DNA from: Candidatus Iainarchaeum sp.
GTDB lineage: Archaea; Iainarchaeota; Iainarchaeia; Iainarchaeales; JAFGBZ01
NCBI GenBank assembly: GCA_043817715.1
Contig: JBDRGO010000007.1
Location: 15,499-79,498, forward strand
Direction: 5' to 3'
Length of the DNA: 64,000 bases
The position numbers and the translations under genes were made by a program. Each line of letters begins with the position of its first letter. Positions within the stretch are counted from its first letter, which is position 1. This document shows, piece after piece, positions 14,237 to 59,110 of the stretch. A model generated the notes under the pieces. The model saw only the letters and a list, made by a program, of their open reading frames with translations. It was not told the origin of the DNA and did not search any database.

Positions 14237-14311
14237 TGGAGATAGGCGGATTTGAACCGCCGACCCTTGGTGTATAAGACCAATGCTCTAGCCAGGCTGA
14301 GCTATACCTCC
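14237..14311 (-). tRNA. tRNA-Ile (anticodon UAU)
   Basis: The reverse complement folds as a canonical cloverleaf: 7-bp acceptor stem, GGCGG-TTCAAAT-CCGCC T-arm, anticodon stem UUGGU/ACCAA with loop CUUAUAC. No encoded CCA. Confidence 0.8.
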
Positions 14312-18179: not shown

Positions 18180-21143
18180 TTAATTTAAATAAATATAGAA
18201 TGCTTCTGAATCCACTTTAAAGAATTCCCCTTGTGAATTGGTTGTTTCCTGAATGAATGAAGGGTGTGAACCTGTTTTTAATTGCTGATAACTTGTTCCT
18301 TGAGTATTAATTAATGCATCATATGCATAATAACTTAAGTTTGAATTAGTGAATGAACCAATTGGCTGACCGTCCTGAGTATCAATATAGTATTTGTTGT
18401 TTTCTTGAATGAAATGCGCTACAAGATAATGTGCAGGATCAGTAAATGAATTTGTAATATCAAAATCTGAATCCTTTGGAGTATAATAAAGCGCGTCAAT
18501 TACTCCGTCTTCAATTCCTGAAGCATTTGGCAGAGAAGTTCCTGAAAAATTAATTGAAGAATTTTTAATGCTTAATGACTGCACTGCAAGCATTAACCAT
18601 AGCCTGTTCAGCATTTTTGCAGGCTTCACTGCATAATATATTGGGTAATCATTTTGCCCCTGCAATCTCAAGCCATACAATGACGGGGTTGCATCAGAAA
18701 TCATGTCCTCTGAAAAAATCATTTTTCCATATGAATTATCAGATGAATCTCCTTTGGTGTTGTAACTCAGTGTTCCTGTTGAATTATTTTTTCTGAATTC
18801 AATTACTCCGTCAACTGAAACCTGCAGTGAATTGCCTGGCTGAATTGAATTCAAAATAAACGGCATTCCATCAGCCAGAAAAGTATTTCCAGCCAAAACT
18901 ATTTGTGTTCCGATTCCTTCAATATTAATTTCTGCTGAATTGAAATCAACTGAATTAATTGTCCATTTTCTTTCATTAATGTAATCCTGATTATTGACTG
19001 TTAAATTATAATCTCTCATGAATGAACTGCTTGAGCCATAATTCACTTTAAACCAGATTGTTTTTGAATCAAATTCAAATGTTGAGCCTTCTTCTGAATC
19101 ATCCAGTTCCAATGCAAAAGGAATTCTGTGAACAATATTCTGGCTGTCTTTGAATTCAATTCCTGAAGAAGTTGAATTGCTTGAATCATAATCTCCTAAT
19201 TTCATTGTAACAGGAATTACCTGAATTGAAACTGTTCCAGTGTTGCTTCCCTGCACGCCGTCCAATGAATGATAAGTGAATGAATCTGTTCCGGCAAATC
19301 CGGCGAAAGGAGTGTATGTTGCAGTGCATGCAGTTAAACCAACATTTCCATGTGCAGGAGGCGATAAAATCAGGCAATTTAAAGCAGTGCCGTCAGGGTC
19401 AAATGTATTCAGGTCAAAAACAAGGTAATTGTTTTCACTTACAGATAAATTCATGTCATATGCAATCGGCACTGCATTTGCCAGAACAGTTAAATCAACC
19501 CTTACTGAATCACTGATATATTGCCCGTCTGAAACTTTGTAAGTGAAATAATCTGTTCCTGAATAATTGTATACAGGATGATAATTTGCAGTGCAGTTAT
19601 TTATTGATAAAGTCCCATGCGAAACAGAAGAATTAACCGAACAGGTTAATGCATCCCCGTCAGCATCAAATACATTCAATGCAAAAGCAATCGGAGTGGC
19701 TTTATTCACTGTAACTGACTGAGGATAACCAACAGGGGAACTGCTGCCCTGACTAACAAGTATTGTTACCTGAACAGGCCCAACAGAATACTGATTGTCA
19801 GATACAGAATAAGTAAAATAATCTGTTCCTGAAAAATTTGCATCAGGAGAATAAGTTGCCCCGCATCCAGTGGCCCAAGTATATGAATCAATGATTAGTG
19901 TTCCATGCTGAGGAGAAGAATTTACTGAACAGTTAACCAAATCATTTTCTGAATCATGCACATCCAAATCAAAAACCAATGCCATGTTTTTGTTTGCCTG
20001 CTTTGATTGAACAGAAGCAGTCGGCGGATTGTTTGCATTCAAAGTAGTGACAGTAATTGTTATTTCTGCTGTATCGCTGTCTGCTTTTCCGTCGCTTGCA
20101 TAATATTCGATTAAATCAGTTCCTGAAAAATTTGCATCAGGAACATAAGTTAAAACACAATTCTGAATTGCTGATGTTCCATGCAATGAATTTCTTTTAA
20201 TAAAACAAGTTAATGCATCATTGTCCGAATCAGATGCATTAAGCGTTAAAGTTCTTGAATTATTAATTGCTGTCGATAAATTCATTGAATTAGCAATTGG
20301 CTTATGGTTCGGAGAAACAACAGCAATTGTTATTGTAGCTAATCCGCTGTTGTTTTTTCCGTCAAATGCATAATAGTTAACGAAGTCAGCCCCAAGATAA
20401 CTTATATTCGGAGTGTAGAAAATTACGCAATTCTGAATTACTGCGGTTCCATGCTCAGGCCCTGAATCAATAAAGCAGTTTAAATCATTGTTTTCAGGAT
20501 CTGAAACAATTAAAGCAATTGTTCTAGTTTGAGCTTTATAAGTAACTGGATCGAAACCTGCGCCATAAATTATTCTGCTGTTTTCAGCAGTAATTGCCTG
20601 ATTTTGGGCTTCAGGCGGGAAATTTATTTCTTCCTGCACTGGCGAAACCAAATTGTTTCCTATTGCATCTGTTCCAAGCAGTCCTGAAAAATTTGTTTTA
20701 ATGAAATCAGTTACTGCAAAATTGTTTCCCATAGGGTTGGAAAGAATAAAGTAAAGCGAAGCCGAGCCAAGAATAAACATAAATCCTAAAAGCAATACTG
20801 AAGCAGATAAAATCAATACAACCTGAATCGGGATTTTCTGGGTGTTTAAAAGCTTTTTTCCTTTTTCAGTCAATTCATAGTATTTCCATTTTCTTCCTTC
20901 ATCAATCTGATGGATTAACTGGCTTTCCTCCAAAAGCTCTAAATGCCTTTTCATGCTTGCAAGAGAAATATTCCTTTTGGCAGCAAGTTCAGTCAAAGTA
21001 TGCCTTCGTTCATATAATGACTTAAGTATTTCAGTTCTTGCCTCTGAAGAAAGCGCCTTGAATTCATCTGAAGAAATAGTTAATTGCTCTTGTTCCATCA
21101 AATCAAATACCCAGTTAGTAATAAATATAAGCATTCCCTTCAA
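18180..21143 (-). CDS. Membrane-anchored winged-helix (ArsR-like) protein with large extracellular Ig-like/cadherin-like repeat domain
   Basis: The N-terminal 100 aa carry a wHTH (RTEILKSLYERRHTLTELAAKRNISLASMKRHLELLEESQLIHQ). A single TM helix follows (VVLILSASVLLLGFMFILGSASL). Downstream, ~95-aa modules recur, each with a conserved DxDxD...C...HGT...YTP...FxGTDxFTY signature typical of Ig-like adhesin repeats. Confidence 0.6.
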   Translation of the reverse strand: MKGMLIFITNWVFDLMEQEQLTISSDEFKALSSEARTEILKSLYERRHTLTELAAKRNISLASMKRHLELLEESQLIHQIDEGRKWKYYELTEKGKKLLNTQKIPIQVVLILSASVLLLGFMFILGSASLYFILSNPMGNNFAVTDFIKTNFSGLLGTDAIGNNLVSPVQEEINFPPEAQNQAITAENSRIIYGAGFDPVTYKAQTRTIALIVSDPENNDLNCFIDSGPEHGTAVIQNCVIFYTPNISYLGADFVNYYAFDGKNNSGLATITIAVVSPNHKPIANSMNLSTAINNSRTLTLNASDSDNDALTCFIKRNSLHGTSAIQNCVLTYVPDANFSGTDLIEYYASDGKADSDTAEITITVTTLNANNPPTASVQSKQANKNMALVFDLDVHDSENDLVNCSVNSSPQHGTLIIDSYTWATGCGATYSPDANFSGTDYFTYSVSDNQYSVGPVQVTILVSQGSSSPVGYPQSVTVNKATPIAFALNVFDADGDALTCSVNSSVSHGTLSINNCTANYHPVYNYSGTDYFTYKVSDGQYISDSVRVDLTVLANAVPIAYDMNLSVSENNYLVFDLNTFDPDGTALNCLILSPPAHGNVGLTACTATYTPFAGFAGTDSFTYHSLDGVQGSNTGTVSIQVIPVTMKLGDYDSSNSTSSGIEFKDSQNIVHRIPFALELDDSEEGSTFEFDSKTIWFKVNYGSSSSFMRDYNLTVNNQDYINERKWTINSVDFNSAEINIEGIGTQIVLAGNTFLADGMPFILNSIQPGNSLQVSVDGVIEFRKNNSTGTLSYNTKGDSSDNSYGKMIFSEDMISDATPSLYGLRLQGQNDYPIYYAVKPAKMLNRLWLMLAVQSLSIKNSSINFSGTSLPNASGIEDGVIDALYYTPKDSDFDITNSFTDPAHYLVAHFIQENNKYYIDTQDGQPIGSFTNSNLSYYAYDALINTQGTSYQQLKTGSHPSFIQETTNSQGEFFKVDSEAFYIYLN

Positions 21144-21152
21144 TTAAAAAAG

Positions 21153-21440
21153 ATTTTTTTAACAAAAACCAGGCTAACAAAAAACAAAGGTTTAAAAAGG
21201 AAGAGAAAAAACAGGGTTTTTTAAGAAATTTAAGTAAAAAAATAATAATTATAAATGCATTTAATTGAAAGGGCAAGAAATATAAACAGTTTCCTGTAAA
21301 ATAATCATTCAACAGTAGTAAAAAATACTTGCTAAGGGGGAAAATTTATGAAAAGTAAATTAATGTATGCATCTTTTTTAATTATTTTAATGGTATTGCT
21401 TGTTTCGGTTTTTGCAGTAAAGGAAATCACTGCAAAGGAA
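21153..21440 (+). repeat. Duplicated 5' region (copy A): upstream sequence plus signal-peptide coding region
   Basis: Near-identical to 22829-23096 (AGATTTTTTTAACAAAAACCAGGCTAACAAAAAACAAAGGTTTAAAAA plus identical signal peptide codons). Confidence 0.8.
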
Positions 21441-22643
21441 GCAATCAGTCCAAAATCAATTGTGGTTTGTGGAGACACAATAACAGAGGACACGAATTTA
21501 ACAAACGACTTAATTGATTGTGGTGGAAGAGGATTAATTATTGAAGGAAATAATATTACTTTGGATTGCCAGGACCATTTAATTGATGGAACTGAAATCA
21601 GCAACTCAAAAGGAATTTATTTGAACACCGTAACAGGAACCACTGTTGAAAATTGTAGAATAAGTGAATTCGATTTTGGAATTTATTTAGAGAATTCAAA
21701 TTATAATACAATAATTAATAACAATTCATATAACAACGGATATTTTGGAATTTTTTTATGGCAATCACACGGCAACGCTTTAATAGACAATAATACATCC
21801 AATAACGACTCGGACGGAATTTATTTTGATTCATCAAACAGTAACTTAATAGCAAACCATAATACAAACAACAACGAAAATTGCGGAATATATTTAGGAA
21901 ATTCAAGAAACAACTCAGTGACAAACTCTGTTGCTAATGAAAACGATTGGGCTGGGATTCTTTTAAATTATACCTCAAACAACAACGAGATAACAAACAA
22001 TGTGTTTCAGAATAACAACGAAGGAGTTCGCACAATGAATTCCATGCAAAACATTTTTTATGAAAACATCTTTTCAAACAATACAGAATATAATGCTTAT
22101 GAATCAATGGGCACAAATGACTGGAACAACACAACAACCGGAAATTATTGGGGTGATTTTAATTCAAACCCAGGATATCCAACACACTACGAAATTCCAG
22201 GAAACGGAAACGGAGTTGATTACTTTCCTGACTGGGAATTTGGCCGCAAGGCTGATTTAAATATAACTTTTTTAAAGGCTTCAGTCAGTTCAGTACCATC
22301 AACCCAACAAATAAAAGTGACTTATTTCTTTACAATAAAAAACATTGGAATTATTGATTCAGGAGATTTTTATACAGGAATATTAATTGAAGAAGAAAAT
22401 CTTTCTCCAAGCCATATTTCAAACACTACACCAAAAGAAGCTTATGCTCCAAATAATTCAAATCATGTAGCAAAAGAAGCTTATACTTCAAATCTTGCAC
22501 CGACAGAATCAATAACCATTATGCGGGAAGCAATTCTTGACAACGGAAGTTATACAATAACTGCAACCGCTGACAACAGAATGCAGGTTGATGAATTAAA
22601 TGAATCAAATAACACTGCAACAATCCATATAGAAGAAAATTAA
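21348..22643 (+). CDS. Secreted parallel beta-helix (NosD-like) protein with C-terminal CARDB-like domain
   Basis: Signal peptide MKSKLMYASFLIILMVLLVSVFA; CGDTITEDTNL...GLIIEGNNITLDCQ cap followed by repeated N-rich PbH1-type coils; GNYWGDFNSNPGYPTHYEIPGNGNGVDYFP block; C-terminal ELNESNNTATI CARDB-like signature. Confidence 0.7.
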   Translation: MKSKLMYASFLIILMVLLVSVFAVKEITAKEAISPKSIVVCGDTITEDTNLTNDLIDCGGRGLIIEGNNITLDCQDHLIDGTEISNSKGIYLNTVTGTTVENCRISEFDFGIYLENSNYNTIINNNSYNNGYFGIFLWQSHGNALIDNNTSNNDSDGIYFDSSNSNLIANHNTNNNENCGIYLGNSRNNSVTNSVANENDWAGILLNYTSNNNEITNNVFQNNNEGVRTMNSMQNIFYENIFSNNTEYNAYESMGTNDWNNTTTGNYWGDFNSNPGYPTHYEIPGNGNGVDYFPDWEFGRKADLNITFLKASVSSVPSTQQIKVTYFFTIKNIGIIDSGDFYTGILIEEENLSPSHISNTTPKEAYAPNNSNHVAKEAYTSNLAPTESITIMREAILDNGSYTITATADNRMQVDELNESNNTATIHIEEN

Positions 22644-22659
22644 TTGATTGTAAAAAAAG

Positions 22660-22740
22660 AGGATTGAAAGCAGGCTTGCCAAAAAATATGTTTGGAGCCA
22701 TGCTTTCAATTCATTTATTCTTCGTTTTTTATTTTTTGTA
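22660..22740 (+). terminator. Putative terminator hairpin plus T-tract downstream of the beta-helix gene
   Basis: Inverted repeat TTGAAAGCA...TGCTTTCAA followed by TTATTCTTCGTTTTTTATTTTTT. Confidence 0.35.
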
Positions 22741-22828
22741 TGCAACATAAATGTCTTGTTCAATCATTTTATTGTTTTTGTGAAAAATAAATATATTTAA
22801 TTTGATAGTGAAAATTAGTTGCTTAAAA

Positions 22829-23096
22829 AAGATTTTTTTAACAAAAACCAGGCTAACAAAAAACAAAGGTTTAAAAATAAGGAAAAAAAGCCAGATTTTT
22901 TAAGAAATTTAATTGAAAAGATACTACTTATAAATTGTTTTACGGAAAATAATCCTTTAACAGTAGTAAAAAAATCACTTATTAATTGGGGGAAGGGACT
23001 TTTATGAAAAATAAATTAATGTATGCATCTTTTTTAATTATTTTAATGGTATTGCTTGTTTCGGTTTTTGCAGTAAAAGGAATGGAATCAATTCCT
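22829..23096 (+). repeat. Duplicated 5' region (copy B)
   Basis: See copy A at 21153-21440. Confidence 0.8.
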
Positions 23097-26000
23097 AAAA
23101 TGAAAACTGAAAGCAGGGAGTCATTTGAACAAAGCACTGTAAAAGAATCAAGTGAAAGTAGTGCTTCAACAAAATCAGGAACTTCAAATATTTCTTCTTC
23201 TACCAGTACTAAAACTGAAAAACCTTTAACCCCAAAAAAACCAATTAAAGAACCTGAAGTTAAACCAAAAAATATTACTGAATATCCTTTTGTTTCAAAT
23301 GTAAATATTGAACCTTATTATGCTAACTCCGGACCAACACTTAATGCTACTTGTACTGATTATGATGGAACAATTGCAAATGCTGAATTTAACTTAAATA
23401 ATTTATCATTTAATTATTCAATGAATGCAGTTGATGGTTTATTTGATGAATCAATTGAAGAAGTAATTGCTTCAGTTCCTACTTTTAATGTAAGCCAAGG
23501 AATAAATGATGGAAATGTTTTTTGCATTGACAATGAAGGAAATGAATCACTTCCTAATACAAACTCTGTTTTTGAATTCTTTTATGATACATTTATACCA
23601 TCCAGCATGAGACAATCAATGCCTCCAAATGGATTGAATGAATGGTTTATTTCTGAAGTTGATGTCGAATTGTTATTTGTAGATGTGGCTCCAAGTTCAG
23701 GACGTAAAGGACTTTATTACTGTCTGGACCAAACAAATTCCTGTTCTCCAAATATTGATGAAAACGGAATGGTTTCAATCACTGATGAAGGAATAAATTA
23801 TTTAAGAGTTTATTCTGAAGACAATGCAGGAAACCAATCCAATACTTATCCTGCCATATATAAAATTGATTTAACTAATCCTTATGGACAAGAAATTTAT
23901 TTTACTAGTGCAAACAATTACGGAGATGTAACTGTTTCATTAAATCCAGGAACAGATGATGTTTCTGATGTGAATTACTGTCAATTAAGATGGGAAGAAG
24001 AAATTCCTTGGTTACCTGTTGGATTAGAAACCAGTGCTTCATATAATTATTCTCCTGGAACACATACAGCTTTTTATAAATGCTTTGATGAAGCAGGAAG
24101 AGAAAGCGAAACAGTTTCAGATACAATAATTATTACTGATAATAATCAATTTGATTTATTCATTGATAATGGTTACATTCCTAATCCTCCTCTTTTTGAT
24201 GATGAAAATGTTTTCATTGTAGTCACTCTCCATAATACAGGGGACATAGCTAGATTAGTGCCTAGTGAAACATATCTTGATAATGAACTTCAAGGCACAC
24301 CACATTATCAATGGTATTTTCCATCAGGAACATCAGATCTTTGGATTGGATTTGAACCCCTAGAAGCCGGAGACCATAATTTAACAATAATTACAGACAG
24401 CACTAATGATTATAATGAATCAAATGAAGAAAACAATGTATTCGAATTTATTTTCAATGTAATGGCTCACACACAACCAGAAATTCAATGCGGAGACACA
24501 ATAACAGAAGACACGAATTTGAATAATGATTTATTGAATTGTAATGAACATGGATTAATTATTGGAGCGAATAATATTACTTTAGACTGCCGGGGGCATG
24601 TAATTGACGGAAACAACAGATATATTCAGCATGGAATTTACTTAAACTACAAGAACGGAAACACTGTCAAAAACTGCAATATACAACAATTTAGCTCCGG
24701 AATTTCATTAATCCGAAGTTCAAATAATACTCTTACAAATAACAACCTAAACAATAACGAGTATGGAATCCAAATTCAGAACGCGAGCAATAATACATTA
24801 ACGAATAACAATGCAAACAATAATTATTCTGGAATTCAATTAAGTGACTCAAACAGAAATACATTAACAGACAATAATGCAAACAACAATTATTCCGGAA
24901 TCAGGCTTCAATTTACAAGCAATAACACATTAACGAATAATACCGCAAATGATAATAACAGCATTGGAATTTATTTAAGCTTTTCAGGCAATAATACTTT
25001 AACAAACAATAATGCAAACAACAATTATTCCGGAATTCAACTAAGTGACTCTAACTATAATACCTTCACAAGCAATATTATAAAAAATAACTCTAATTAC
25101 GGAGTGGAATTTTTTGAGTATTATTTCTCCATTTTACCACACAACATTTTTTCAGGCAATTTTTTCATAGACAATTATATTAATGCCCGTGAAGACGTAA
25201 ATCACCTCTTCAACGACTGGAATTCCGGTTTAACCGGAAACTACTGGAGCGACTTCAATAACGATAACCCAGGATATCCAAATTACTATGAAATCCCTGG
25301 ACCAGGAAACGGAATTGATTATCATCCAACAGGACCAACACAAGAAATCCAATGCGGAGATACAATAACAGAAGACACGAATTTGAATAATGAGTTACTG
25401 AATTGTACTGGAAATGGATTAATTATTGATGCAAATAATATTACATTGGATTGTCAAGGACATTTAATTGATGGAGAAGGAAGCAATTACGGAATCACTA
25501 TTAGTAACAAACATGGAATTACCATTCAAAACTGTAACATAAGGGCATTTGATGACGGAATAAGATTATATTCCAGCAACAACAATTTCATTCATAATAA
25601 CAATATTATAAACACAAACATAGCAATAGATGTTTACTCATCCAGTACAAACACAATTTCCAACAATACCATTCCAAACAACCTTGACGGAATATACCTT
25701 CGCTACTCCAGCAACAACAATCTTGTATCAAACAATACAATTGTAAACAACCAGCAAGGATTATATTTGCTTGAAAACTCAAAATATAATACTTTTTGGA
25801 ATAACACATTGCTTAACAATATTATAAATGCATCTGAAGCCCATAGTTCAGCAAGCCCTAACGACTGGAATTCAGGAACTGTTGGAAACTACTGGAGTGA
25901 TTTTAACACAAACCCAGGATATCCTAATTACTATGAAATCACTGGACCAGGACAAGGAATTGATTGGCATCCAACAGGACCAACACAAGAAATCCAATGC

Positions 26001-28295
26001 GGAACAACAATAATGCAGGACACAAATTTAACAAACGATTTACTGGATTGCAATGGAAACGGATTAATTATTGGCGCAAATAATATTACGCTGGATTGCC
26101 AAGGGCATTTAATCGATGGAAATTGGAATGATTATGGAAAGTTCGGAATTTATCTTGAAGGAAAGCAAAATATTAATATAAAGAACTGCAATATACAAAA
26201 ATTTTATCGTGGAATTTATTTATTCCTATCCAACAATAATGTTTTGAATGGCAATAATATCAGTAACACCACTGAGGGAATTAAACTATTTTCAAGCTTT
26301 TACAATATTATAACCAAAAATGTTATAAGCAATAATAATTCTGACGGCGTTAGCTTAGATTATAGCTCAGATAATGAGATAATTAGCAATACCATCAGTA
26401 ACAACGATAATGAAGGCATTAGATTATTTTCCAGTTCCGGAACGGAAATTGTTAGCAACAACATAAATTATAATGACAACGGAATCGGGTTATATCACGG
26501 GTCAACTAATAGATTAATAGACAATAGTATAAGCAATAATAACAATGATGGACTTGGGTTGCATTTTGATTCTATTCATAATAATCTAAGTGGCAATGTA
26601 ATAAACGGTAATGGATATGGCGCGTCCTTAACTTTTGATTCTCGATACAACACTTTCTGGGACAACAACTTCTTGAATAACGGAACCAATGCCTATGAAG
26701 ATTCAAATTCCAATTTCAACGACTGGAATTTAGGAACAACCGGAAATTACTGGAGTGATTTCAACTCAAATCCAGGATATCCAAATTATTACGAAATTTC
26801 CGGACCAGGAAACGGAATAGACTGGCATCCGTTAAATGAAATACCTCCTGAATGCGTTGCTCCAACAGACGGAATGAGCATAACTGAAGACACTGTTTTT
26901 TGTTCGGGAACATATGTTTTGCCTAACGGGATTTCAATTGATGCGGACAATGTTACTTTGGATTGCGACGGGGCGGAATTGGATGGAAACACACTAGTGC
27001 CTCCTCCTAACGAACCTGGATTTGGGATAGAAATACGCGATAAAAGCAATATTGTTATAAATAATTGTAAAATTAAACACTATCCTATTGGACTATTTGC
27101 AAAATTTTCGCAGTCTATACTAAAGAATAGCGAGATAGAAAACAATTCAACAGGGGCATTACTCGGAGGTAACGAAAACGAAGTAATATCCAACTATTTT
27201 AATGAGAATAAAAAAAGTATAGTCATCAAGGACTCTCTAAGAACTAGATTGCAATACAATGAGATAATACCAACTAATTCAAATTATCTTCCTGAAGCAT
27301 TAGAAGTGTGGGGAAGCAATAAGGAAGAATACCAACAAGTTATAGATGAAACAAATTTTATTAATGGAAAACCAATTTTATATTATGATGATATAAACAA
27401 ATTGTGTCCAAATAATCAAACGTTTTCAGATTTAAATAATTATAGCCATATCTCCTTTGTGGGGTGTAATAATATCACAATTGAAGACAACAATTTATAT
27501 GAAAATGATGGAATTTTCCTTTATTACTCAGACGATTTCAATATCTTAAATAATTCAATGGACAAAATACAAATTCTAGTTGAGAAATCAAATAATATTA
27601 ATATATCCAATAATGAAGGGAATAAAACAATCATTGAATTTTTTAAATCAAATAACAACAACATTACCCAAAATTATTTAAATGAAGGGCGTCTCGAGTT
27701 AATGGAGTCTAATAGTAATTACATTTACCTAAACAGCCTAAATGGTGCTAATCAAATAGTGCCAGAAATAGGGTTTTTCATCAATGATTCGAATGACAAC
27801 CAGATCGAAGAAAATAATATTTTCAATTACTACAGAGGAATGTATATTGGCGCTCCTGGAAATAATAACTTTCTTCAGCACAACAATTTTTTCAACAACA
27901 GTTTGTTCAATATCTATTATCAGGGGGAATTTGAAGACATCAACACAGCAAACAACTACTGGGGCACCACCAGCATGCTGGGAATTGCCCAGAAAATTTA
28001 TGATTACTGGGATGATCCATTCAGTGGAATAGGTGAAGTGAATTACTGTCCTTATTTGAATGCACCTGACGGCACTCCAATTGAATGCATTCCATGTGAA
28101 AATGCAGATATTGATGAATCAAATTATGTTAATTCAATGGATTTCGCTTTATGGAGAATTAATAACGGAAGCAGTGACTGTAATGCATCAAATAATTACT
28201 GCAACAGGGCAGACATTGACAGGGACTCTTATGTGAATACAACTGATTTCACTTATTGGAGATTTTATAATGGAAGAACCTGTACAGATGAATAA
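23004..28295 (+). CDS. Giant secreted multi-module beta-helix protein with C-terminal dockerin-like domain
   Basis: Start placed at MKNKLMYASFLIILMVLLVSVFA (paralogous signal peptide, RBS GGGGGAAGGG). At least three NosD-like beta-helix modules follow. Each opens with EIQCGDTITEDTNLNNDLLNC...NITLDCQGH.IDG and ends with NDWNSGTxGNYWSDFNxNPGYPNYYEIxGPGxGIDWHP. The C-terminus carries two ADIDxxxYVNxxDFxxWR repeats. Confidence 0.7.
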   Translation: MKNKLMYASFLIILMVLLVSVFAVKGMESIPKMKTESRESFEQSTVKESSESSASTKSGTSNISSSTSTKTEKPLTPKKPIKEPEVKPKNITEYPFVSNVNIEPYYANSGPTLNATCTDYDGTIANAEFNLNNLSFNYSMNAVDGLFDESIEEVIASVPTFNVSQGINDGNVFCIDNEGNESLPNTNSVFEFFYDTFIPSSMRQSMPPNGLNEWFISEVDVELLFVDVAPSSGRKGLYYCLDQTNSCSPNIDENGMVSITDEGINYLRVYSEDNAGNQSNTYPAIYKIDLTNPYGQEIYFTSANNYGDVTVSLNPGTDDVSDVNYCQLRWEEEIPWLPVGLETSASYNYSPGTHTAFYKCFDEAGRESETVSDTIIITDNNQFDLFIDNGYIPNPPLFDDENVFIVVTLHNTGDIARLVPSETYLDNELQGTPHYQWYFPSGTSDLWIGFEPLEAGDHNLTIITDSTNDYNESNEENNVFEFIFNVMAHTQPEIQCGDTITEDTNLNNDLLNCNEHGLIIGANNITLDCRGHVIDGNNRYIQHGIYLNYKNGNTVKNCNIQQFSSGISLIRSSNNTLTNNNLNNNEYGIQIQNASNNTLTNNNANNNYSGIQLSDSNRNTLTDNNANNNYSGIRLQFTSNNTLTNNTANDNNSIGIYLSFSGNNTLTNNNANNNYSGIQLSDSNYNTFTSNIIKNNSNYGVEFFEYYFSILPHNIFSGNFFIDNYINAREDVNHLFNDWNSGLTGNYWSDFNNDNPGYPNYYEIPGPGNGIDYHPTGPTQEIQCGDTITEDTNLNNELLNCTGNGLIIDANNITLDCQGHLIDGEGSNYGITISNKHGITIQNCNIRAFDDGIRLYSSNNNFIHNNNIINTNIAIDVYSSSTNTISNNTIPNNLDGIYLRYSSNNNLVSNNTIVNNQQGLYLLENSKYNTFWNNTLLNNIINASEAHSSASPNDWNSGTVGNYWSDFNTNPGYPNYYEITGPGQGIDWHPTGPTQEIQCGTTIMQDTNLTNDLLDCNGNGLIIGANNITLDCQGHLIDGNWNDYGKFGIYLEGKQNINIKNCNIQKFYRGIYLFLSNNNVLNGNNISNTTEGIKLFSSFYNIITKNVISNNNSDGVSLDYSSDNEIISNTISNNDNEGIRLFSSSGTEIVSNNINYNDNGIGLYHGSTNRLIDNSISNNNNDGLGLHFDSIHNNLSGNVINGNGYGASLTFDSRYNTFWDNNFLNNGTNAYEDSNSNFNDWNLGTTGNYWSDFNSNPGYPNYYEISGPGNGIDWHPLNEIPPECVAPTDGMSITEDTVFCSGTYVLPNGISIDADNVTLDCDGAELDGNTLVPPPNEPGFGIEIRDKSNIVINNCKIKHYPIGLFAKFSQSILKNSEIENNSTGALLGGNENEVISNYFNENKKSIVIKDSLRTRLQYNEIIPTNSNYLPEALEVWGSNKEEYQQVIDETNFINGKPILYYDDINKLCPNNQTFSDLNNYSHISFVGCNNITIEDNNLYENDGIFLYYSDDFNILNNSMDKIQILVEKSNNINISNNEGNKTIIEFFKSNNNNITQNYLNEGRLELMESNSNYIYLNSLNGANQIVPEIGFFINDSNDNQIEENNIFNYYRGMYIGAPGNNNFLQHNNFFNNSLFNIYYQGEFEDINTANNYWGTTSMLGIAQKIYDYWDDPFSGIGEVNYCPYLNAPDGTPIECIPCENADIDESNYVNSMDFALWRINNGSSDCNASNNYCNRADIDRDSYVNTTDFTYWRFYNGRTCTDE
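24475..26110 (+). repeat. Intragenic tandem module repeats (three copies, periods about 870 and 640 bp)
   Basis: Module starts at about 24475, 25348 and 25988 share a 130-bp stretch at more than 80% identity (CAATGCGGAGACACAATAACAGAAGACACGAATTTGAATAATGA...). A fourth copy in the paralog at about 21470. Confidence 0.6.
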
Positions 28296-28457: not shown

Positions 28458-29921
28458 ATGGCTTTAAAGGATTTATTGGAAAGCAGGAATGCTAATTTAA
28501 AGAAAATTGAGGAACTTGGATTTAACCCTTATCCATACAAATTCAAGGCAGAAAATTATGCCAAAGACATTAATGAAAAATATGGAAAAATAAAAGAAGG
28601 GGAAATGACTGGAAAAAAAGTTTCTGTTTTTGGAAGAATAATGAGCAACCGCGGAATGGGAAAAATGGCTTTCATGGATTTAATGGATTCAACTGACAGA
28701 ATCCAGATTGTGTTCAGGGAAGATTTATTGAATAAAAATAAATTTGAATTAATGCAGGCAGTTGATTTAGGGGATTTTCTTGGAGTCAAAGGAGAAGTAT
28801 TCAAAACCAAAAGAGGCCAGTTAAGCATTTTATGCAATGATTTTGAATTTATGTCAAAAGCAGTAAGACCTTTGCCGGAAAAATGGCATGGGCTGCAGGA
28901 TTTGGAAATCCGTTACAGAAAGCGTTCGCTTGACTTAATCATGAACCCTGAAACAAGAAAAGCATTTGAAATGCGTTCAAAAATAATTGATGCAGTAAGG
29001 GAATTCTTTAAATCAAAAGGATTTTTGGAAGTTGAAATTCCTTTAATTCAGCCTGTTTACGGCGGAGCAAACGCAAAGCCATTCATAACCAAATCAAATG
29101 CCTTGGACCAAAACATGTATCTAAGCATTTCGCCTGAATTATATTTAAAAAAATTAATTGTCGGAGGATATGAAAAGGTTTTCACCATCTGCAAGAATTT
29201 CCGAAATGAAGACATTGATAAAACCCATAATCCAGAATTCACAATGCTTGAATCATATGAAATCAATGCAGATTACAATGATGTAATGGATTTGGTTGAG
29301 GAATTATTTGAATTCACTGCATTAAAAGTTTTAGGCAAAACAAAAATCAATTATCAGGGAACAGAAATTGAATTAAAGCGCCCGTGGAAAAGGATTCCAA
29401 TGAAACAGGCAATAAAGGAATTTGCAGGAATTGATGTTGACAAAAAAACCGACAAGGAACTCTTTGAAAAAATCCTTGCGCATGGAGAGCCATATGACGG
29501 CGCAAAAGAAAGAGGCTGGCTAATTCAGGAACTGTTTGAAAGATACTGCGAAAAGCATTTAATCCAGCCAACCCATGTAATTGACCATCCAAAAGAAACA
29601 ACTCCTTTATGCAAAAAGCACAGGAAAGAAAAAGGATTAATTGAACGAGCTGAATCATTCATTAATTCATGGGAAATGACCAATCTTTACTCTGAATTAA
29701 ATGACCCAATAGTGCAAAAGGAAATGTTTGAACTGCAGGAAAAAATGACTGGTTTGAAGGAAAAACACCCCAAAGACACAGATTTCATTGAAGCAATGGA
29801 ATACGGCATGCCTCCAACAGGCGGATTAGGAATCGGAATTGACAGAATGGCAATGCTGCTGCTGGACCAACCGACAATAAGGGATGTAATTTTCTTCCCG
29901 CAAATGAGAACAATGAAATAA
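28458..29921 (+). CDS. lysS: Lysyl-tRNA synthetase, class II
   Basis: 487 aa; N-terminal OB anticodon-binding domain; class II motifs; C-terminal GMPPTGGLGIGIDRMAMLLLDQPTIRDVIFFPQMR is diagnostic of LysRS-II. Confidence 0.85.
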   Translation: MALKDLLESRNANLKKIEELGFNPYPYKFKAENYAKDINEKYGKIKEGEMTGKKVSVFGRIMSNRGMGKMAFMDLMDSTDRIQIVFREDLLNKNKFELMQAVDLGDFLGVKGEVFKTKRGQLSILCNDFEFMSKAVRPLPEKWHGLQDLEIRYRKRSLDLIMNPETRKAFEMRSKIIDAVREFFKSKGFLEVEIPLIQPVYGGANAKPFITKSNALDQNMYLSISPELYLKKLIVGGYEKVFTICKNFRNEDIDKTHNPEFTMLESYEINADYNDVMDLVEELFEFTALKVLGKTKINYQGTEIELKRPWKRIPMKQAIKEFAGIDVDKKTDKELFEKILAHGEPYDGAKERGWLIQELFERYCEKHLIQPTHVIDHPKETTPLCKKHRKEKGLIERAESFINSWEMTNLYSELNDPIVQKEMFELQEKMTGLKEKHPKDTDFIEAMEYGMPPTGGLGIGIDRMAMLLLDQPTIRDVIFFPQMRTMK

Positions 29922-30235: not shown

Positions 30236-30598
30236 ATGAAATATTTTTTCGATACTTATGCGTTAGTCGAAATTGTTGAAAAAAACCCGAATTATGTAAA
30301 ATTCATAAAAGAAGAAATTGTTACAGGCATTCTTAACATTGGAGAATTTTATTATTCGCTCCTGAAAGATTACGATGAAAGCACTGCGCAAAACTGGCTG
30401 AAGATTTTTGGGCAGACAATAATTCCTTTAAGCACAGACACAGCCATCAATGCAATGAAATTCAAATTCCTAAACAGGAAAAAAAACTTTTCTTTTGTTG
30501 ACTGCTGCAGTTACATGCAAGCAAAAGAAAACAACTTGATTTTCTTAACCGGCGACAAGGAATTCAAAGGAATGCCTAATGTGGAATTCGTGAAATGA
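30236..30598 (+). CDS. vapC: PIN-domain toxin (VapC-like)
   Basis: Start at MKYFFDTYALVEIV 4 nt after the antitoxin stop. The leading D of the PIN acidic set is in that motif; the conserved C-terminal acidic residue lies in LTGDKEF. Confidence 0.75.
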   Translation: MKYFFDTYALVEIVEKNPNYVKFIKEEIVTGILNIGEFYYSLLKDYDESTAQNWLKIFGQTIIPLSTDTAINAMKFKFLNRKKNFSFVDCCSYMQAKENNLIFLTGDKEFKGMPNVEFVK

Positions 30599-30657
30599 GA
30601 AAAAGAATTCAGATATGCCTATGCAAAGAAATTTAAATATAATTATATCTAATTATA

Positions 30658-30927: not shown

Positions 30928-31255
30928 AATAATCAAGGAAAACCAGAATTACAAACCATTTAAGGAAGCAGTTGCAGTAACAGGCAAAGCCAACTTGATT
31001 GAAGTCGCGTACAGTCTGCTTCAGGATTTCCAAAAAGAAACCGCATTAATTATATTGGGTTCCCTGAAAATCAAAACCCTTGAAATAGAGGACAACCAGA
31101 TAACAAAAATCGCTGTTTTCAAAAAAGAACACGCCAAAAAAAAATTCTCTTACATTGACTGCATAGGTTATATCCTGGCAAAAGAAAACGGAATAGCTTT
31201 CGTCACAGGCGACAAGGAATTTGAAGGAATGCCTAATGTGGAATTCGTGAAATGA
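30884..31255 (+). CDS. vapC: PIN-domain toxin (VapC-like), second copy
   Basis: Paralog of 30236-30598; the last 45 nt are identical. No in-frame ATG at the homologous position. Proposed TTG start at 30884 sits 5 nt after a GGAGGGAGG RBS and overlaps the antitoxin. Confidence 0.6.
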   Translation: MNGKEKFLDSYAIIEIIKENQNYKPFKEAVAVTGKANLIEVAYSLLQDFQKETALIILGSLKIKTLEIEDNQITKIAVFKKEHAKKKFSYIDCIGYILAKENGIAFVTGDKEFEGMPNVEFVK

Positions 31256-31349
31256 GAAAAGATATTTTTGTATAAATGAGAAAAATAAAAAAAGGAATTT
31301 ATAACAGATTGCATGAATGAAAATTTGAAAAACCTTAAAGGAAACTCAA

Positions 31350-36808: not shown

Positions 36809-36974
36809 TTAGTTTACTGGCAGGCTGAAACCTGCTTGATTTTCCCTTAAATTCCGTCAAAAACCAGAAAATTCAAGGTTTTAATGGGTTTTTAGCCTGT
36901 TTTGTTTAAAAACCTTTTTCTTGCTTCATTTAAACTATATTGTGTTTATTTGACCAATAAAGGAGGAATTTAAT

Positions 36975-37151
36975 ATGGCAGATATGTTAGTAGTAAAATC
37001 AAAAGTAGCAGAATATATTAAAGGAAAAGGAATGATGATGGCATCAGATTCACCGGAAGCATTAAGCGGAATGGTTGCAATGTTTTTAGATAAATCAATC
37101 GCAAGATGCAAAGAAAACGGAAGAAAAACCGTTAAACCATACGACTTCTAA
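36975..37151 (+). CDS. Small conserved protein (58 aa), DUF1931/histone-fold-like
   Basis: Below the ORF-track cutoff. Strong RBS AAAGGAGG 8 nt upstream. The stop is followed by a perfect hairpin ACGACTTCTAATTAGAAGTCGT plus T8. Sequence MADMLVVKSKVAEYIKGKG...NGRKTVKPYDF resembles the small archaeal DUF1931 family. Confidence 0.4.
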   Translation: MADMLVVKSKVAEYIKGKGMMMASDSPEALSGMVAMFLDKSIARCKENGRKTVKPYDF

Positions 37152-37162
37152 TTAGAAGTCGT

Positions 37163-37369
37163 TCACTTCTTTTTTTTAATTTCATCTAAAAGCCCTAATT
37201 TTTCAATAGACAAACGCTCTAATTCCTTAGTTTCCTCAAAAGTAAGTCCATTATCTCTTTTAAAAACCGCTTTTCTTATCTTGATTCTTTTCCTATCAAT
37301 TAATTTTATTTTAATTTTATTTACAACGCGTTTAATAAAATGAAATTTTAAAGGCATTTTTCTCATCAA
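37163..37369 (-). CDS. Hypothetical small basic protein
   Basis: 68 aa, K/R-rich. Confidence 0.25.
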   Translation of the reverse strand: MMRKMPLKFHFIKRVVNKIKIKLIDRKRIKIRKAVFKRDNGLTFEETKELERLSIEKLGLLDEIKKKK

Positions 37370-37776
37370 ACAATATTTAACTGTATTTTTTTGCTTACAT
37401 CAAACCCCATTGGAATATCCAATGAGGCTTCAATGAACCATTTAACTGTTGAAGTTTTTCCGCCTAAATTTAATGACAACAGGCCCAAATCAATCTTTGC
37501 CCCGGTATTAATCGGAGTGTATTGCGGAATTCCGATTTCAAATTCATATTCTTTTGTCCGGTAATCTTTTTCTCCTTCTTCAAGCATTATTTTTATTTCA
37601 TTAACCCTTCTAATTGAAGTTTTTCCGCCTTTACTTGAATAAGAAGTTGTTTCTTCTTCTCCGTAAAAAACAGCCCTTACTCCGCGTGCCTTGGTTGCTT
37701 CCTTTAAATCCAGAAAAGCCTTTCCCTTAATTGTTTCCCCGAACTTAAAATTCGTTTTATCAAGGATTAATTTCAT
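37366..37776 (-). CDS. Hypothetical protein
   Basis: 136 aa, beta-rich; 4-nt overlap with downstream gene. Confidence 0.3.
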   Translation of the reverse strand: MKLILDKTNFKFGETIKGKAFLDLKEATKARGVRAVFYGEEETTSYSSKGGKTSIRRVNEIKIMLEEGEKDYRTKEYEFEIGIPQYTPINTGAKIDLGLLSLNLGGKTSTVKWFIEASLDIPMGFDVSKKIQLNIV

Positions 37777-49703: not shown

Positions 49704-52154
49704 ATGAACATGAATAATTGGTTAAAGTCAGGAATTTTTTTATTTTTATTAATTTTATTCAGCGCAGGCGTTTTTTCTGACCCTATTATTTATGCATTCA
49801 GTCCGGAAAACGGCTCTTATTATGAGGTAGGAGAATTGGTTAATTTTAAGGCATATGTTGCCGACCAAAAGTATGGTAATGGACAGGCCGCTTTTGCAAA
49901 AAACTGCGGTTATCCAAATAATCCGACAAATGAATGCTTTACCTGGTTTTCAAGCCTGGATGGCTTTTTAGGTTATGGAGTTGGCATTAACAAAGATTTA
50001 ACCGAAGGAACCCATACAATTACTTTTACTGCAACAAATCCAGATAATGAATCAACCAGCATGCAGATTCTTATTTTCGTAGGAATTAACCCCTATAATT
50101 ATCCTCCTTCAATTAATCTCCCAACAACATGGGAAATTGATGAAAGCAAGGAATTTGAAACACTTGATTTATGGCAGTATGCAAATGATGCAGATGATGA
50201 CGATGATGATTTGGATTTCTGGATTGTAAGCGAAAGCAATACCAATACAGTGAACTGCCATATTCAATCAGGCAGATATCTTAAATGCTATCCTTACAAT
50301 GAAGGATTTAGTTATGTCAAAGTAAGGGTTGAAGACCCTGAAGGATTTTATGCTGAAGACACAGTTAAAATTGTTGTCAGTGATTCATTTTCAGGAACTA
50401 ATCTGGAATTAGTGCTTCCTGCAGAATGGGAAATGGACAAAGATGATTCAATCCAGTCAATTGATTTATGGGATTACACTGATTTTGACGGAGATTATGA
50501 TGATTTAGATTATGAAATTGACAGCGAAACAAATACAGCAGTTGCTGACTGCTATATTTCAGGAAAATACCTGAAATGCAATCCAAAGAAAAAAGGAACA
50601 AGCACAGTTTATGTTGATGTATCAGGAGACGGAGAAACTGATTCAGATTACGTGAAAATAACAGTTATAGACCAGGGAACTGGTTCAGGGAATTTGGAAT
50701 TAATCCTTCCAGAAGAATGGGAAATTTATGAAAATGAGCAGACTGATTCAATTGATTTATTGGATTACACTTATTATGACGGAGACGAAGCTGACTTGGA
50801 TTATGAAATCACAAGCGAATCAGGCACCTCAATAGTGGACTGCTATATTTCAGGAACTTACCTTAAATGCAATCCAAAGAAAAAAGGAACAAGCAAAGTT
50901 TATGTAAAAGTTGATGATGGATATGAAACAGATTCAGATTATGTGAATGTAACTGTGATTGACGGCGGAACAAGCACCACAGGATGCAGTAACCTTGAAA
51001 TCAATACTTTTACAGTTTCATTAAATGAAGGGACTTATAAAATTTCTGAATTTGAACTGAAAAACAATTCAGGCAAAAAATTCTTTATTGATTCCATGGA
51101 AGCATATGATAGTTCAAGCTATTTTGATACAGCCAAATACAGCGCTCCGGATTATGTCAATGGAAACAATAAAGCCAAATTCAAAGTTAAAATTGAATCA
51201 AACGAAGTTTCAGGAAACAAAACAGGAACAGCTTATGTAAAGGTAAAAGGCCATTTTTCAGGGCAAAACTCATGCACTAAAACAGAAAGCTTTACAGTAA
51301 AAATAAATGATTTAGGCAGTTCAAATGGAAACAATGACTTTGATAATAACTTTAATTATAATTATGAATGGGACAGTTCATCAGTTGTTTTAGTAAGCCC
51401 GAAATCACTTGTATTAAATAAAGGGGAATCAGAAGGAGTTTCAATGCTTGTAAGGAATTTGACTGATTCAACCCAATGCTATGAAATAAGCTTTAATTCA
51501 GGCACAAAATACATTAAAACAGAAATTCAGGATATTGATGAATTCTGTTTGGATGAAGCAGAATACACTGAATTAAAATTAAGGGTTTTGGCTGAAACAG
51601 ATGCAGTGCCAGGATATTATTCCCCTACAATTGAGACAAAGTATCACGGAAAAACCGACAGGCAGTCAATCAGTGTTAAGGTTACAGCAGACAAGGCTCC
51701 CGCAGCAAAAGAAGAAGTTCTTTCATTAAGCGGGTTTACTTCAGAAATTGAATCATTTGAAGATGAAACAGAACTGGAATTCACTGTTGAAAACAAATCA
51801 GACGAAACAATTAATGATGTATTGATTTCAATTGAAGGCCTGCCTGAAAATGCAAGATTTGAACCAGTATTGATTTCATTCATCGGCGCAAAAAACGCAA
51901 GAACAGTTAAAGGAAAACTTTTACTGAAAGATGTTGCAGCAGGGGAATACAAAACAGTAATTAAAGTCCAGTCAGGAAATGAAATGACTGCAAAAGAAAT
52001 GGCATTAAAAGTGACAGAAAAAGCACAAGAAGAAAATGGCTTTATTTCAGGATTAATTGGATTAGGCTCAACAGCAGGAATAATCATTGGATTCATTATT
52101 CTGCTGGTTTTGGCAGTGGCAATAATTTATTATGCAATAAAACCACATAACTAG
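49704..52154 (+). CDS. Secreted surface protein with three ~100-aa acidic repeats and a C-terminal GL-x-GL-S + TM anchor
   Basis: Signal peptide; repeats LEL(V/I)LP(A/E)EWE...DLWDYTD...DLDYEI.SE...CYISG.YLKCNPKKKGTS.VYV; C-terminus GFISGLIGLGSTAGIIIGFIILLVLAVAIIYYAIKPHN. Confidence 0.55.
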   Translation: MNMNNWLKSGIFLFLLILFSAGVFSDPIIYAFSPENGSYYEVGELVNFKAYVADQKYGNGQAAFAKNCGYPNNPTNECFTWFSSLDGFLGYGVGINKDLTEGTHTITFTATNPDNESTSMQILIFVGINPYNYPPSINLPTTWEIDESKEFETLDLWQYANDADDDDDDLDFWIVSESNTNTVNCHIQSGRYLKCYPYNEGFSYVKVRVEDPEGFYAEDTVKIVVSDSFSGTNLELVLPAEWEMDKDDSIQSIDLWDYTDFDGDYDDLDYEIDSETNTAVADCYISGKYLKCNPKKKGTSTVYVDVSGDGETDSDYVKITVIDQGTGSGNLELILPEEWEIYENEQTDSIDLLDYTYYDGDEADLDYEITSESGTSIVDCYISGTYLKCNPKKKGTSKVYVKVDDGYETDSDYVNVTVIDGGTSTTGCSNLEINTFTVSLNEGTYKISEFELKNNSGKKFFIDSMEAYDSSSYFDTAKYSAPDYVNGNNKAKFKVKIESNEVSGNKTGTAYVKVKGHFSGQNSCTKTESFTVKINDLGSSNGNNDFDNNFNYNYEWDSSSVVLVSPKSLVLNKGESEGVSMLVRNLTDSTQCYEISFNSGTKYIKTEIQDIDEFCLDEAEYTELKLRVLAETDAVPGYYSPTIETKYHGKTDRQSISVKVTADKAPAAKEEVLSLSGFTSEIESFEDETELEFTVENKSDETINDVLISIEGLPENARFEPVLISFIGAKNARTVKGKLLLKDVAAGEYKTVIKVQSGNEMTAKEMALKVTEKAQEENGFISGLIGLGSTAGIIIGFIILLVLAVAIIYYAIKPHN

Positions 52155-58800: not shown

Positions 58801-58919
58801 AAACAAAAAAAGAGCAAGAGGAAACCAAAACAGAAGAACCAAAAGAACCTGCTGAAGCAAAGGCAAAAAAGAAAACAGCAAAAAAAGAAACAAAAAAAAC
58901 AGGCAAAAAAAAGAATTAA
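55836..58919 (+). CDS. Surface protein with von Willebrand factor A (vWA/MIDAS) domain, C-terminal TM anchor and poly-Lys tail
   Basis: Start set at MHKIIGMLLVLALIFPAAYA (signal peptide; RBS AAAGGAGAGG), overlapping the upstream stop by 8 nt. The vWA domain has the MIDAS motif DTSGSM, then LSPQGKTPLAQAL, then ILVSDGKET. C-terminus GSGLFSLVGLSGVIIGLILLILLAVGSYYYIKQKKEE... with a K-rich tail. Confidence 0.7.
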   Translation: MHKIIGMLLVLALIFPAAYALEINGNCDNSITQCELGINDLEVCNNSTQRDFFNVTLSGEAAKWVTVLPSTLELGPGECRQIQTFTVSACYTEPGTYGYTITVSDGFNASINCELEIIQGHIVPIKIMPSYHEAAQCEEKIYSVELNNTSIIDKQQTEDVFLSLHGELPEEWAQFSETELKVKKGSPKTVELKVKSPCNAEFKEYDFIVRAALFNPNFFDEDNAVFEVKQAQNLVISSESNAALIACKEEKREYFLNFRNNGKYNDEYELNLDGPEWVQLERDTVSIQAGTSKDVKLILNKAPKEKEISLKVKAVSEKYNYETTKLIDVKAMDCYSLKAELIQGANTACAEVQETYEFEVTNTSIEKRNIELEVKGLNGDLEKNALALEAGETQKVTFRPDLENLPEEGYAEESDITSIEFIMDTSGSMIEKLGGEKKIDIAKRELRKLIEDTASINAGLRVFGQGISDDCAESQLTYPIEKLNTGKMIQKINSLSPQGKTPLAQALNAGANDFTEKGNNAIILVSDGKETCNGNIDEAIKTAKEKGVRVYTVGFDIDEAGQKELKKIASETGGKYFDAVNAEELAGSLNEIARELKIVKSKSSAESFTFKAKTEFAEASKKINLTVNDCFNAALSIPELALCKGIEKKEFFKIANLGTEKLEFEVSSVPEWIKVDEKFIKTTVLPEEEKEIPFTALAPINAIESEYTITVNSENQKLKDTKEMVYLSDASCIGVDLITLIEEIDAKVCEGKDYTIYIENTGQTNAEVTVSSNKSWVYVINDKITLTPGERKEVTFFVSPPFDVGPYTELVFNAKTDKGFESSVSIGLIKTGQDFEEEIDLQIKADKKIIEITDPKEGATVEFELENNSNRVLKINSITSLKYDAKFNLEKTRIAAKERTKVSMQVIIPEGEEGTIVVPFKITTNQGTYVRDIPVEFKITEAPQTEEQPISIGSGLFSLVGLSGVIIGLILLILLAVGSYYYIKQKKEETKKEQEETKTEEPKEPAEAKAKKKTAKKETKKTGKKKN

Positions 58920-59110
58920 TTCAAACAAAACAAGTAAAAGCAAAAACAAACAACACAAAAAGAAAAAAACAAGAAATTCAAACAAAAAAGAATTAATTCA
59001 AAAACAAAAAGAAATAATTCCAACAAAAGAACAATGCAAAAAAAACAAACAAAAAATTAACCAAAAAAAAAAAATATTAAAAAGAAGAATTGTTTCTTCT
59101 TTTCTTTTTC
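58790..59110. repeat. Poly-purine (A-rich) low-complexity tract
   Basis: About 320 nt that is over 80% A/G; it encodes the K-rich tail of the vWA protein and continues beyond the stop. Confidence 0.6.

Follow-up and report, generated by a model that had tools for sequence, protein, structure and literature searches.

Two adjacent genes in a stretch of archaeal DNA begin with closely similar upstream sequence, leader and signal-peptide codons and then diverge into different proteins, and the question raised by this locus is whether the shared segment is as old as the genes it heads or was copied between them long afterwards. The genes lie in a 64,000 nt segment of contig JBDRGO010000007.1 (hereafter the window), from the metagenome-assembled genome (MAG) of a Candidatus Diapherotrites, a DPANN archaeon known only from a metagenome; the window is AT-rich (~32% GC) and encodes a thermosome and other archaeal housekeeping genes. 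Gene A (21348-22643, + strand; 100% identical to MFH1587847.1) encodes a 431 aa protein with a signal peptide, one NosD/beta-helix module and a CARDB domain. Gene B (23004-28295, + strand; MFH1587848.1) encodes 1763 aa, in which the signal peptide is followed by a Ser/Thr/Lys/Pro linker, an N-terminal region, three NosD/beta-helix modules closely related to that of gene A, and further beta-helix repeats. Searches with the Pfam NosD and right-handed parallel beta-helix families (PF05048 and PF13229) bear out the preliminary description of both as beta-helix genes, with scores of 92.8 bits (NosD), 103 bits (Beta_helix) and 38 bits (CARDB) for gene A, and 329 bits (NosD) and 238 bits (Beta_helix) for gene B, all above the gathering score. 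We find that genes A and B are old tandem paralogues, whereas the segment at their 5' ends, here called the cassette, is a much younger copy made at the DNA level.

A direct repeat heads genes A and B

Copy A of the cassette (21144-21427, + strand, 284 nt) comprises an upstream block, promoter candidates, a leader, a candidate ribosome-binding site (RBS) and gene A signal-peptide codons 1-25 (+2); copy B (22823-23083, + strand, 261 nt) has the same elements and heads gene B. The two were aligned with MAFFT and recovered by blastn (copy A against the window, E 2e-66), and they are direct repeats with starts 1,679 nt apart. They are identical at 223 of 253 aligned bases (88%) and differ further by three indels of 31, 2 and 6 nt, with identity rising to 97-100% in the flanks. 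The preliminary description of about 270 nearly identical base pairs captured a repeat that is real and far beyond chance, but near-identity is true only of those flanks (55/55 and 73/75 nt), the middle ranging from 56 to 88%; its coordinates fell in the right region, starting 6-9 nt late and ending 13 nt late. Two cores, one of 49 nt in the upstream block and one of 65 nt in the signal-peptide block, are each present exactly twice in the 64 kb (0 expected). A dot-plot-type comparison of the whole window with itself, suggested earlier as a check, returns the cassette pair as the second strongest repeat, the strongest being a junction of beta-helix modules inside gene B.

The cassette has sharp edges on both sides. 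To the left, copy A borders on the promoter region of a gene transcribed divergently; copy B is preceded by 180 nt of unrelated spacer, which comes after the gene A stop codon and two T6 runs. To the right, identity falls from 97% to 41%, about the random level, two codons past a probable signal-peptidase site, VFA|VK. Two expectations of the preliminary description hold here: the similarity extends into the non-coding upstream region rather than being limited to the signal peptide, and the two genes diverge downstream, to 41% identity after codon 25. A false duplication or chimeric join arising at the repeat during assembly is scarcely credible. Although the source contig (81,410 bp) belongs to a MAG, and perfect blocks of 55-66 nt, shorter than reads, could mislead an assembly graph, the two copies would be identical if they had arisen by collapse or false duplication; instead, 30 substitutions and three indels separate them, and each runs into unique, intact, in-frame sequence encoding a complete protein. 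The 30 substitutions comprise 19 transitions and 11 transversions, are symmetric between the copies and are not adenine-specific; this transition-biased pattern, together with the lack of a reverse transcriptase among the window proteins scanned, excludes a diversity-generating retroelement.

No third copy was found in the window by searches allowing up to three mismatches, by blastn or by self-comparison. Exact scans of two public DNA collections (genome contigs and metagenome contigs) with a cassette 30-mer and 37-mer gave no match, nor did a scan of viral contigs with a 24-mer; plasmid and phage records show no similarity to the cassette, and two 20-mer matches in metagenomes are chance, neither of them extending. 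These searches bear on the idea that a mobile promoter-bearing element, similar to a miniature inverted-repeat transposable element or derived from a phage or plasmid, inserted upstream of the two genes. The sharp left boundary and the short palindrome with which the repeat begins would suit such an element, but the repeat continues in frame into coding sequence and stops at the signal-peptide boundary, it has neither unit-spanning terminal inverted repeats nor a target-site duplication, and none of the searched collections holds another copy; we regard an insertion of this kind as extremely improbable. A weak match to the left part of the upstream block, in reverse orientation (82% identity across 34 nt; E 0.08), lies at 36889-36919, 5' of the small gene at 36976, and is probably chance in AT-rich DNA.

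Relative age of the cassette and the gene bodies

The proportion of synonymous differences (pS) was calculated by the Nei-Gojobori method between the gene A module and the three gene B modules, and for the signal peptide. The modules share ~50% aa identity and 57-60% nt identity and are saturated at synonymous sites (pS 0.61-0.69, and up to 0.76 across the gene bodies), with values of 0.38-0.67 in the most conserved module heads and tails (0.38-0.65 for the heads) and 0.72-0.97 in module interiors. Against this, a single synonymous change is found across the 15.3 synonymous sites of the 25 signal-peptide codons (pS 0.065); at gene-body rates, at most one change would be seen with a probability of 0.008 if the lowest rate is taken and of 4e-6 if the typical one is. 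The central non-coding part of the cassette, of which ~100 nt can be aligned, is 18% diverged (K ~0.21), and the signal-peptide synonymous sites do not differ significantly from it (p = 0.46). Because synonymous and non-coding divergence match, the whole cassette is of one age, far younger than the gene bodies; and because both are low, the copying took place at the DNA level and the similarity does not reflect selection on the signal-peptide sequence alone. The tract also stands out from its flanks as gene conversion tracts do, with 88% nt identity compared to ~60% in the beta-helix modules and 41% just past the signal peptide. The recombination or gene-conversion cassette of the preliminary description is supported by these divergences as far as DNA-level copying is concerned, whether by conversion or by duplication.

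The same figures make it unlikely that the cassette dates from an ancient duplication along with the genes, every conserved base having been kept since by purifying selection, with no later exchange of DNA. The pattern does have the look of a footprint, in that the perfect blocks coincide with plausible elements (TATA-like boxes, the start region and the signal peptide) and the most diverged stretch falls at a would-be spacer; however, divergence is only 6-18% at the signal-peptide synonymous sites and across ~100 nt of leader and spacer sequence, compared to saturation at the synonymous sites of the gene bodies. Nor does RNA structure account for nucleotide-level constraint on the leader or the coding part: no stable or covarying structure was found in the leader and signal-peptide region, where there are no compensatory pairs and the leaders fold worse than shuffles (z +0.7 and +1.6), as expected of an open translation-initiation region, and no Rfam family is present in the window except one tRNA.

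The heads and tails of the beta-helix modules (24476-26830 in gene B; 21468-21682), and hence the module junctions, reach 77-85% nt identity, which could result from codon bias at conserved residues or from older intragenic conversion.

Conserved blocks and promoter candidates

Differences between the copies are strongly clustered, with perfect runs of 66 and 55 nt that were reproduced in none of 200,000 permutations. The shorter run is block 1, at the left end of the cassette (21144-21198 in copy A and 22823-22877 in copy B, + strand), where all 55 nt are identical. Its conservation exceeds that of the cassette background (Fisher p = 3e-4), and 55 matches would occur with a probability of 1.6e-5 at background divergence; since block 1 is non-coding, this points to nucleotide-level constraint or to a second, more recent short conversion tract. 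At the other end, the non-synonymous sites of the signal peptide are likewise more conserved than background (p = 0.0017), which is explained by protein-level selection. Block 1 contains a palindrome with 8-nt arms, TTAAAAAA-GAT-TTTTTTAA (21144-21162), and two TAACAAAAA(A)C direct repeats, and its sub-motifs show no enrichment elsewhere in the window. It ends in AAGGTTTAAAAA (21187-21198), which resembles the TATA-like box, with transcription factor B recognition element (BRE), of this genome and may be a distal BRE/TATA. The motif AAG[GC]TTTAAA is intergenic at six of its seven occurrences, while intergenic DNA makes up 13% of the window, and at other genes it lies 49-79 nt 5' of the start codon.

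Immediately downstream is the most diverged stretch of the cassette (21199-21216; 22878-22895 in copy B), with 10 of 18 positions identical (p = 0.027 compared to the cassette background). If AAGGTTTAAAAA acts as a distal promoter, this stretch would sit where the spacer between TATA box and transcription start site (TSS) is expected, and its low conservation would fit that role, as spacers are not expected to be conserved in sequence. The segment that follows (21217-21257) is identical at 35 of 40 positions, including a 17/17 run, block 2, of sequence TTTTTTAAGAAATTTAA (21217-21233; 22896-22912 in copy B), and all 8 nt of TTATAAAT (21249-21256 and 22928-22935). The latter is the TATA candidate that the preliminary description placed in both copies, and its match to the archaeal TATA consensus suggests a promoter role. 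Copy A alone has a 31-nt segment at 21257-21287 carrying a second TATA-like box, ATATAAAC (21280-21287). The distance of 34 nt from this box to AGTAGTAA, the core of AACAGTAGTAAAAAA, equals that from TTATAAAT in copy B, and the indel is therefore best read as a duplication or deletion between two TATAAA repeats, between which its placement is ambiguous. In the remainder of the upstream region (21289-21347), 46 of 59 positions are identical and the 2-nt and 6-nt indels occur, and AACAGTAGTAAAAAA (21311-21325; 22959-22973 in copy B) is conserved at 15/15 positions in the predicted TSS region of the proximal promoter. Judged by sequence, the archaeal promoter candidates of the cassette are TTATAAAT and ATATAAAC (proximal) and AAGGTTTAAAAA (distal), and both copies keep their promoter candidates. 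A sigma-70 promoter and terminator scan gave shuffle-level output, this being a bacterial model that is not applicable to an archaeon. Two T6 runs 3' of the gene A stop codon (22725-22737, + strand) are a candidate archaeal-type terminator, so that gene B would need a promoter of its own.

AGTAGTAA occurs five times in the window compared to 0.65 expected, a count that 0 of 100 shuffles reach. Its four non-coding sites (21314, 22962, 49679 and 52993, + strand) lie ~35-45 nt 5' of an ATG and ~26-34 nt 3' of a TATA-like box at genes for secreted proteins, namely gene A, gene B, an 816-aa gene at 49704 and a 282-aa gene at 53040, all four with a GGGGG RBS. It may be a start-site or leader element common to surface-protein genes.

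Translation start and signal peptide

Both copies carry the G-rich RBS of the preliminary description, in the form of a GGGGG run 7-11 nt 5' of the ATG. In copy A it is at 21336-21340, 7 nt from the start codon, and in copy B at 22988-22992, accompanied by a GGG at 22995-22997. G-rich or GGTGA boxes precede many ATGs in the window, and the cassette run fits the RBS usage of this genome. The start of gene B is ATG 23004 and not TTG 22986, which the preliminary description had already suspected to be wrong: the TTG falls within the G-rich RBS, the ATG aligns with that of gene A, and the NCBI record of 1763 aa matches an ATG start.

Signal-peptide codons 1-25 (MKSKLMYASFLIILMVLLVSVFAVK in gene A, 21348-21422; beginning MKNK in gene B, 23004-23078; both + strand) are identical at 73 of 75 nt, with one synonymous and one non-synonymous change. 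Read by inspection for the n, h and c regions of a Sec-type (signal peptidase I) signal peptide, the gene A N-terminus has MKSK, an 18-residue hydrophobic core and V-F-A before VK. Cleavage after VFA is likely, although the segment may instead be a signal-anchor. There is no cysteine in MK(S/N)KLMYASFLIILMVLLVSVFAVK, and the lipobox feature is correspondingly absent.

An exhaustive HMMER search of the 30-residue N-terminus against 1.84 billion protein representatives returned only the protein itself and a tandem-repeat junk protein (P0067), but this is a weak negative, as the cluster that contains gene B is represented by an unrelated 38-aa sequence. That representative of the gene B 90% cluster (P0086/P0087) is an ENA fragment from a bacterial-looking sugar-biosynthesis contig, and it is a clustering artefact that conceals gene B from representative-based searches. 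A word-index protein search with a 40-aa N-terminal alignment gave no candidates and missed the self protein too, and is uninformative. One protein (P0063) considered as a signal-peptide-only match was rejected, its similarity being to the GNYWSDF...GNGVDY module tail.

Proposed concerted evolution of the 5' ends

We favour, with moderate confidence, concerted 5'-end evolution of two tandem surface-protein paralogues that share an expression and export segment. Genes A and B are old tandem paralogues for secreted beta-helix surface proteins, and their 5' ends, over ~200 nt before the ATG and through the whole signal peptide, were homogenised again in DNA long after the bodies diverged. This could have happened by gene conversion confined to the still-homologous 5' region, or by a partial duplication that grafted the promoter and signal peptide of one gene onto the other. 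Afterwards the unconstrained positions of the cassette drifted by ~18% (K about 0.2), while the signal peptide was kept by protein-level selection and, on this reading, the 55-nt upstream block by nucleotide-level selection. Both genes would then use the same promoter elements, leader, RBS and Sec-type signal peptide and be co-expressed and exported alike; co-regulation through common promoter elements, as the preliminary description had it, is plausible. As a by-product, direct repeats 1.7 kb apart could recombine, deleting or amplifying gene A.

Several points weigh against this account. The relative dating of the cassette is firm, but with two copies and no related genome conversion is indistinguishable from a one-off partial duplication. 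Further copies may exist elsewhere in the MAG, the searches having covered the 64-kb window and the public collections. The promoters, TSS, RBS and signal-peptide cleavage site are all predictions, and the distal TATA-like box lies 138-161 nt from the ATG, farther than the 49-79 nt seen elsewhere in the window. Finally, 55 nt of perfect non-coding identity is long for archaeal operator sites, and a second recent conversion tract is an alternative to selection on block 1.

Comparison with known systems

The preliminary description also proposed that the cassette allows swapping of secreted modules, and at its strongest this would be programmed surface variation, with the cassette as a recombination substrate for swapping, deleting or switching modules. 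DPANN archaea depend on cell-surface contact with their hosts, which counts in favour of such a role, as do the direct repeats, whose offset of 1,679 nt could allow gene A to be lost by recombination between them. Paralogues with a conserved 5' segment that extends from non-coding DNA into N-terminal coding sequence are found in the sap surface-layer family of Campylobacter fetus and in slpA/slpB of Lactobacillus acidophilus, and in both systems one promoter is moved between genes by DNA inversion between oppositely oriented copies. In contrast, both copies described here point the same way, and both have promoter candidates of their own.

The layout is closest to that of vpma in Mycoplasma agalactiae and vsp in M. 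bovis, which are clustered paralogues for variable surface lipoproteins with a conserved region of 5' untranslated region (UTR) and signal peptide and differing mature parts (PMC2268961), and a conserved 5'UTR and signal peptide on divergent surface-protein genes is what we see here too. However, vpma and vsp comprise six or more genes next to which an Xer-type site-specific recombinase is encoded; their recombination sites lie in the 5'UTR, only one promoter is active, inversions occur and the signal peptides are of lipoprotein type. The locus described here lacks the inverted members and the single expression promoter of such a multigene cluster; it has two genes, both on the + strand, both retain their sets of promoter candidates so that neither looks silent, and there is no lipobox cysteine. 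No recombinase, integrase, transposase or reverse transcriptase domain was found by Pfam scans of 33 window proteins, these being the three genes of the locus (18-28 kb) and 30 others from 12-16, 30-47 and 48-61 kb. No other copy turned up in the window, the two public DNA collections or the 1.84 billion protein representatives, and the 18% divergence of the cassette middle argues against frequent exchange. The swapping of modules therefore finds no support, and we consider programmed variation very unlikely.

A parallel to concerted 5'-end evolution is the lpl family of tandem lipoprotein paralogues in Staphylococcus aureus (Tsuru and Kobayashi 2008, PMC2568036), in which the unit of evolution is not the open reading frame (ORF): intergenic DNA evolves jointly with the adjoining 5' part of the next ORF, and the genes are reshuffled by homologous recombination where stretches are conserved. 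In both cases tandem paralogues encode host-interaction surface proteins, and intergenic DNA evolves together with the 5' end of the ORF. They differ in that the lpl recombination site is central in each ORF, there are many copies, and the events are documented by multi-strain comparison, whereas here the conserved tract is the segment from promoter to signal peptide of two genes in one genome. Generic concerted evolution by ectopic gene conversion likewise leaves sharp-edged tracts of high identity in old paralogues, including at synonymous and non-coding sites, and from this the cassette shows no difference in kind; what sets it apart is that the organism is a DPANN archaeon and that the tract coincides exactly with an expression-plus-export module. 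The case is one of ordinary concerted 5'-end evolution, familiar in surface-protein gene families, and involves no new mechanism.

If our account is right, the gene pair constitutes a natural footprinting experiment in a lineage without mapped promoters. The bases kept identical amid drift would mark candidate cis-elements, namely the 55-nt block, TTTTTTAAGAAATTTAA, the TATA boxes, AACAGTAGTAAAAAA and the G-rich RBS, and the conserved N-terminus would mark a working secretion signal for Diapherotrites surface proteins. It would also extend to DPANN archaea the concerted 5'-end evolution of surface-protein paralogues that is well known in bacterial pathogens. The locus is of value mainly for this natural footprint, which picks out candidate elements for promoters and for secretion in the genome of a Diapherotrites archaeon, from a poorly studied lineage.

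The divergent neighbour and the surrounding genes

The leftwards-transcribed gene next to cassette A (18180-21098, - strand) has a TATA-like box at 21123-21130 (+ strand numbering) that abuts the left edge of the cassette. Pfam matches identify an ArsR-type winged helix, followed by a transmembrane helix and five Big_9/cadherin-like repeats, an unusual architecture in which one transmembrane helix connects the winged helix to ~850 aa of repeats; homologues of its N-terminus in other DPANN MAGs are only ~175-235 aa. The protein may act as a one-component regulator that is anchored in the membrane and has a large ectodomain, and it is a candidate regulator of the cassette, although that link is speculative. 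Synteny does not support it, since homologues of the winged-helix and transmembrane N-terminus adjoin small pilin-like genes and not beta-helix genes. Joining these elements, one could picture a portable expression-and-export module in which block 1 is the operator of the winged-helix protein, whose cadherin/Ig-like ectodomain would sense host contact and directly switch on both adhesin-like beta-helix genes, while cassette recombination, here and possibly on unseen contigs, would vary the surface-protein repertoire across the population of a host-dependent DPANN archaeon; taken as a whole this picture is a long shot.

Independent instances of the arrangement were sought, and the loci of two other proteins (P0002 and P0003) have no paralogue pair. 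The best non-self match to gene A is 40% identical, and in a synteny comparison based on the lysyl-tRNA synthetase gene beside gene B the nearest loci, with 41-50% identity, belong to unrelated phyla. This synthetase (28458-29921, + strand) appears to be of class II and bacterial type, with its best genome matches in Promethearchaeati, Dehalococcoidia, Chlamydiota and Caldisericota MAGs and not in DPANN.

The sole tRNA in the window, identified by both ARAGORN and Rfam, is a tRNA-Ile with anticodon TAT (UAU) at 14237-14311 (- strand); most archaea read AUA via a modified CAU anticodon instead. Other repeats are present. A 125-nt repeat with 80% identity (30479-30603 and 31136-31260) is shared by a PIN-domain gene (30236-30598), at its 3' end, and the intergenic DNA 5' of a YgjP-like metallopeptidase gene, and may be a toxin-gene fragment. 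Internal tandem repeats (~290 nt at 76% identity) occur at 50400-50971 inside the secreted 816-aa gene, and repeats offset by ~90 nt at 58785-59089, at the 3' end of a VWA-domain gene. Finally, a 136-aa protein encoded at 37366-37776 (- strand) has Pfam matches to Arrestin_N (E 1.4e-6) and to Arrestin_C (E 4e-4), domains that are uncommon in archaea.

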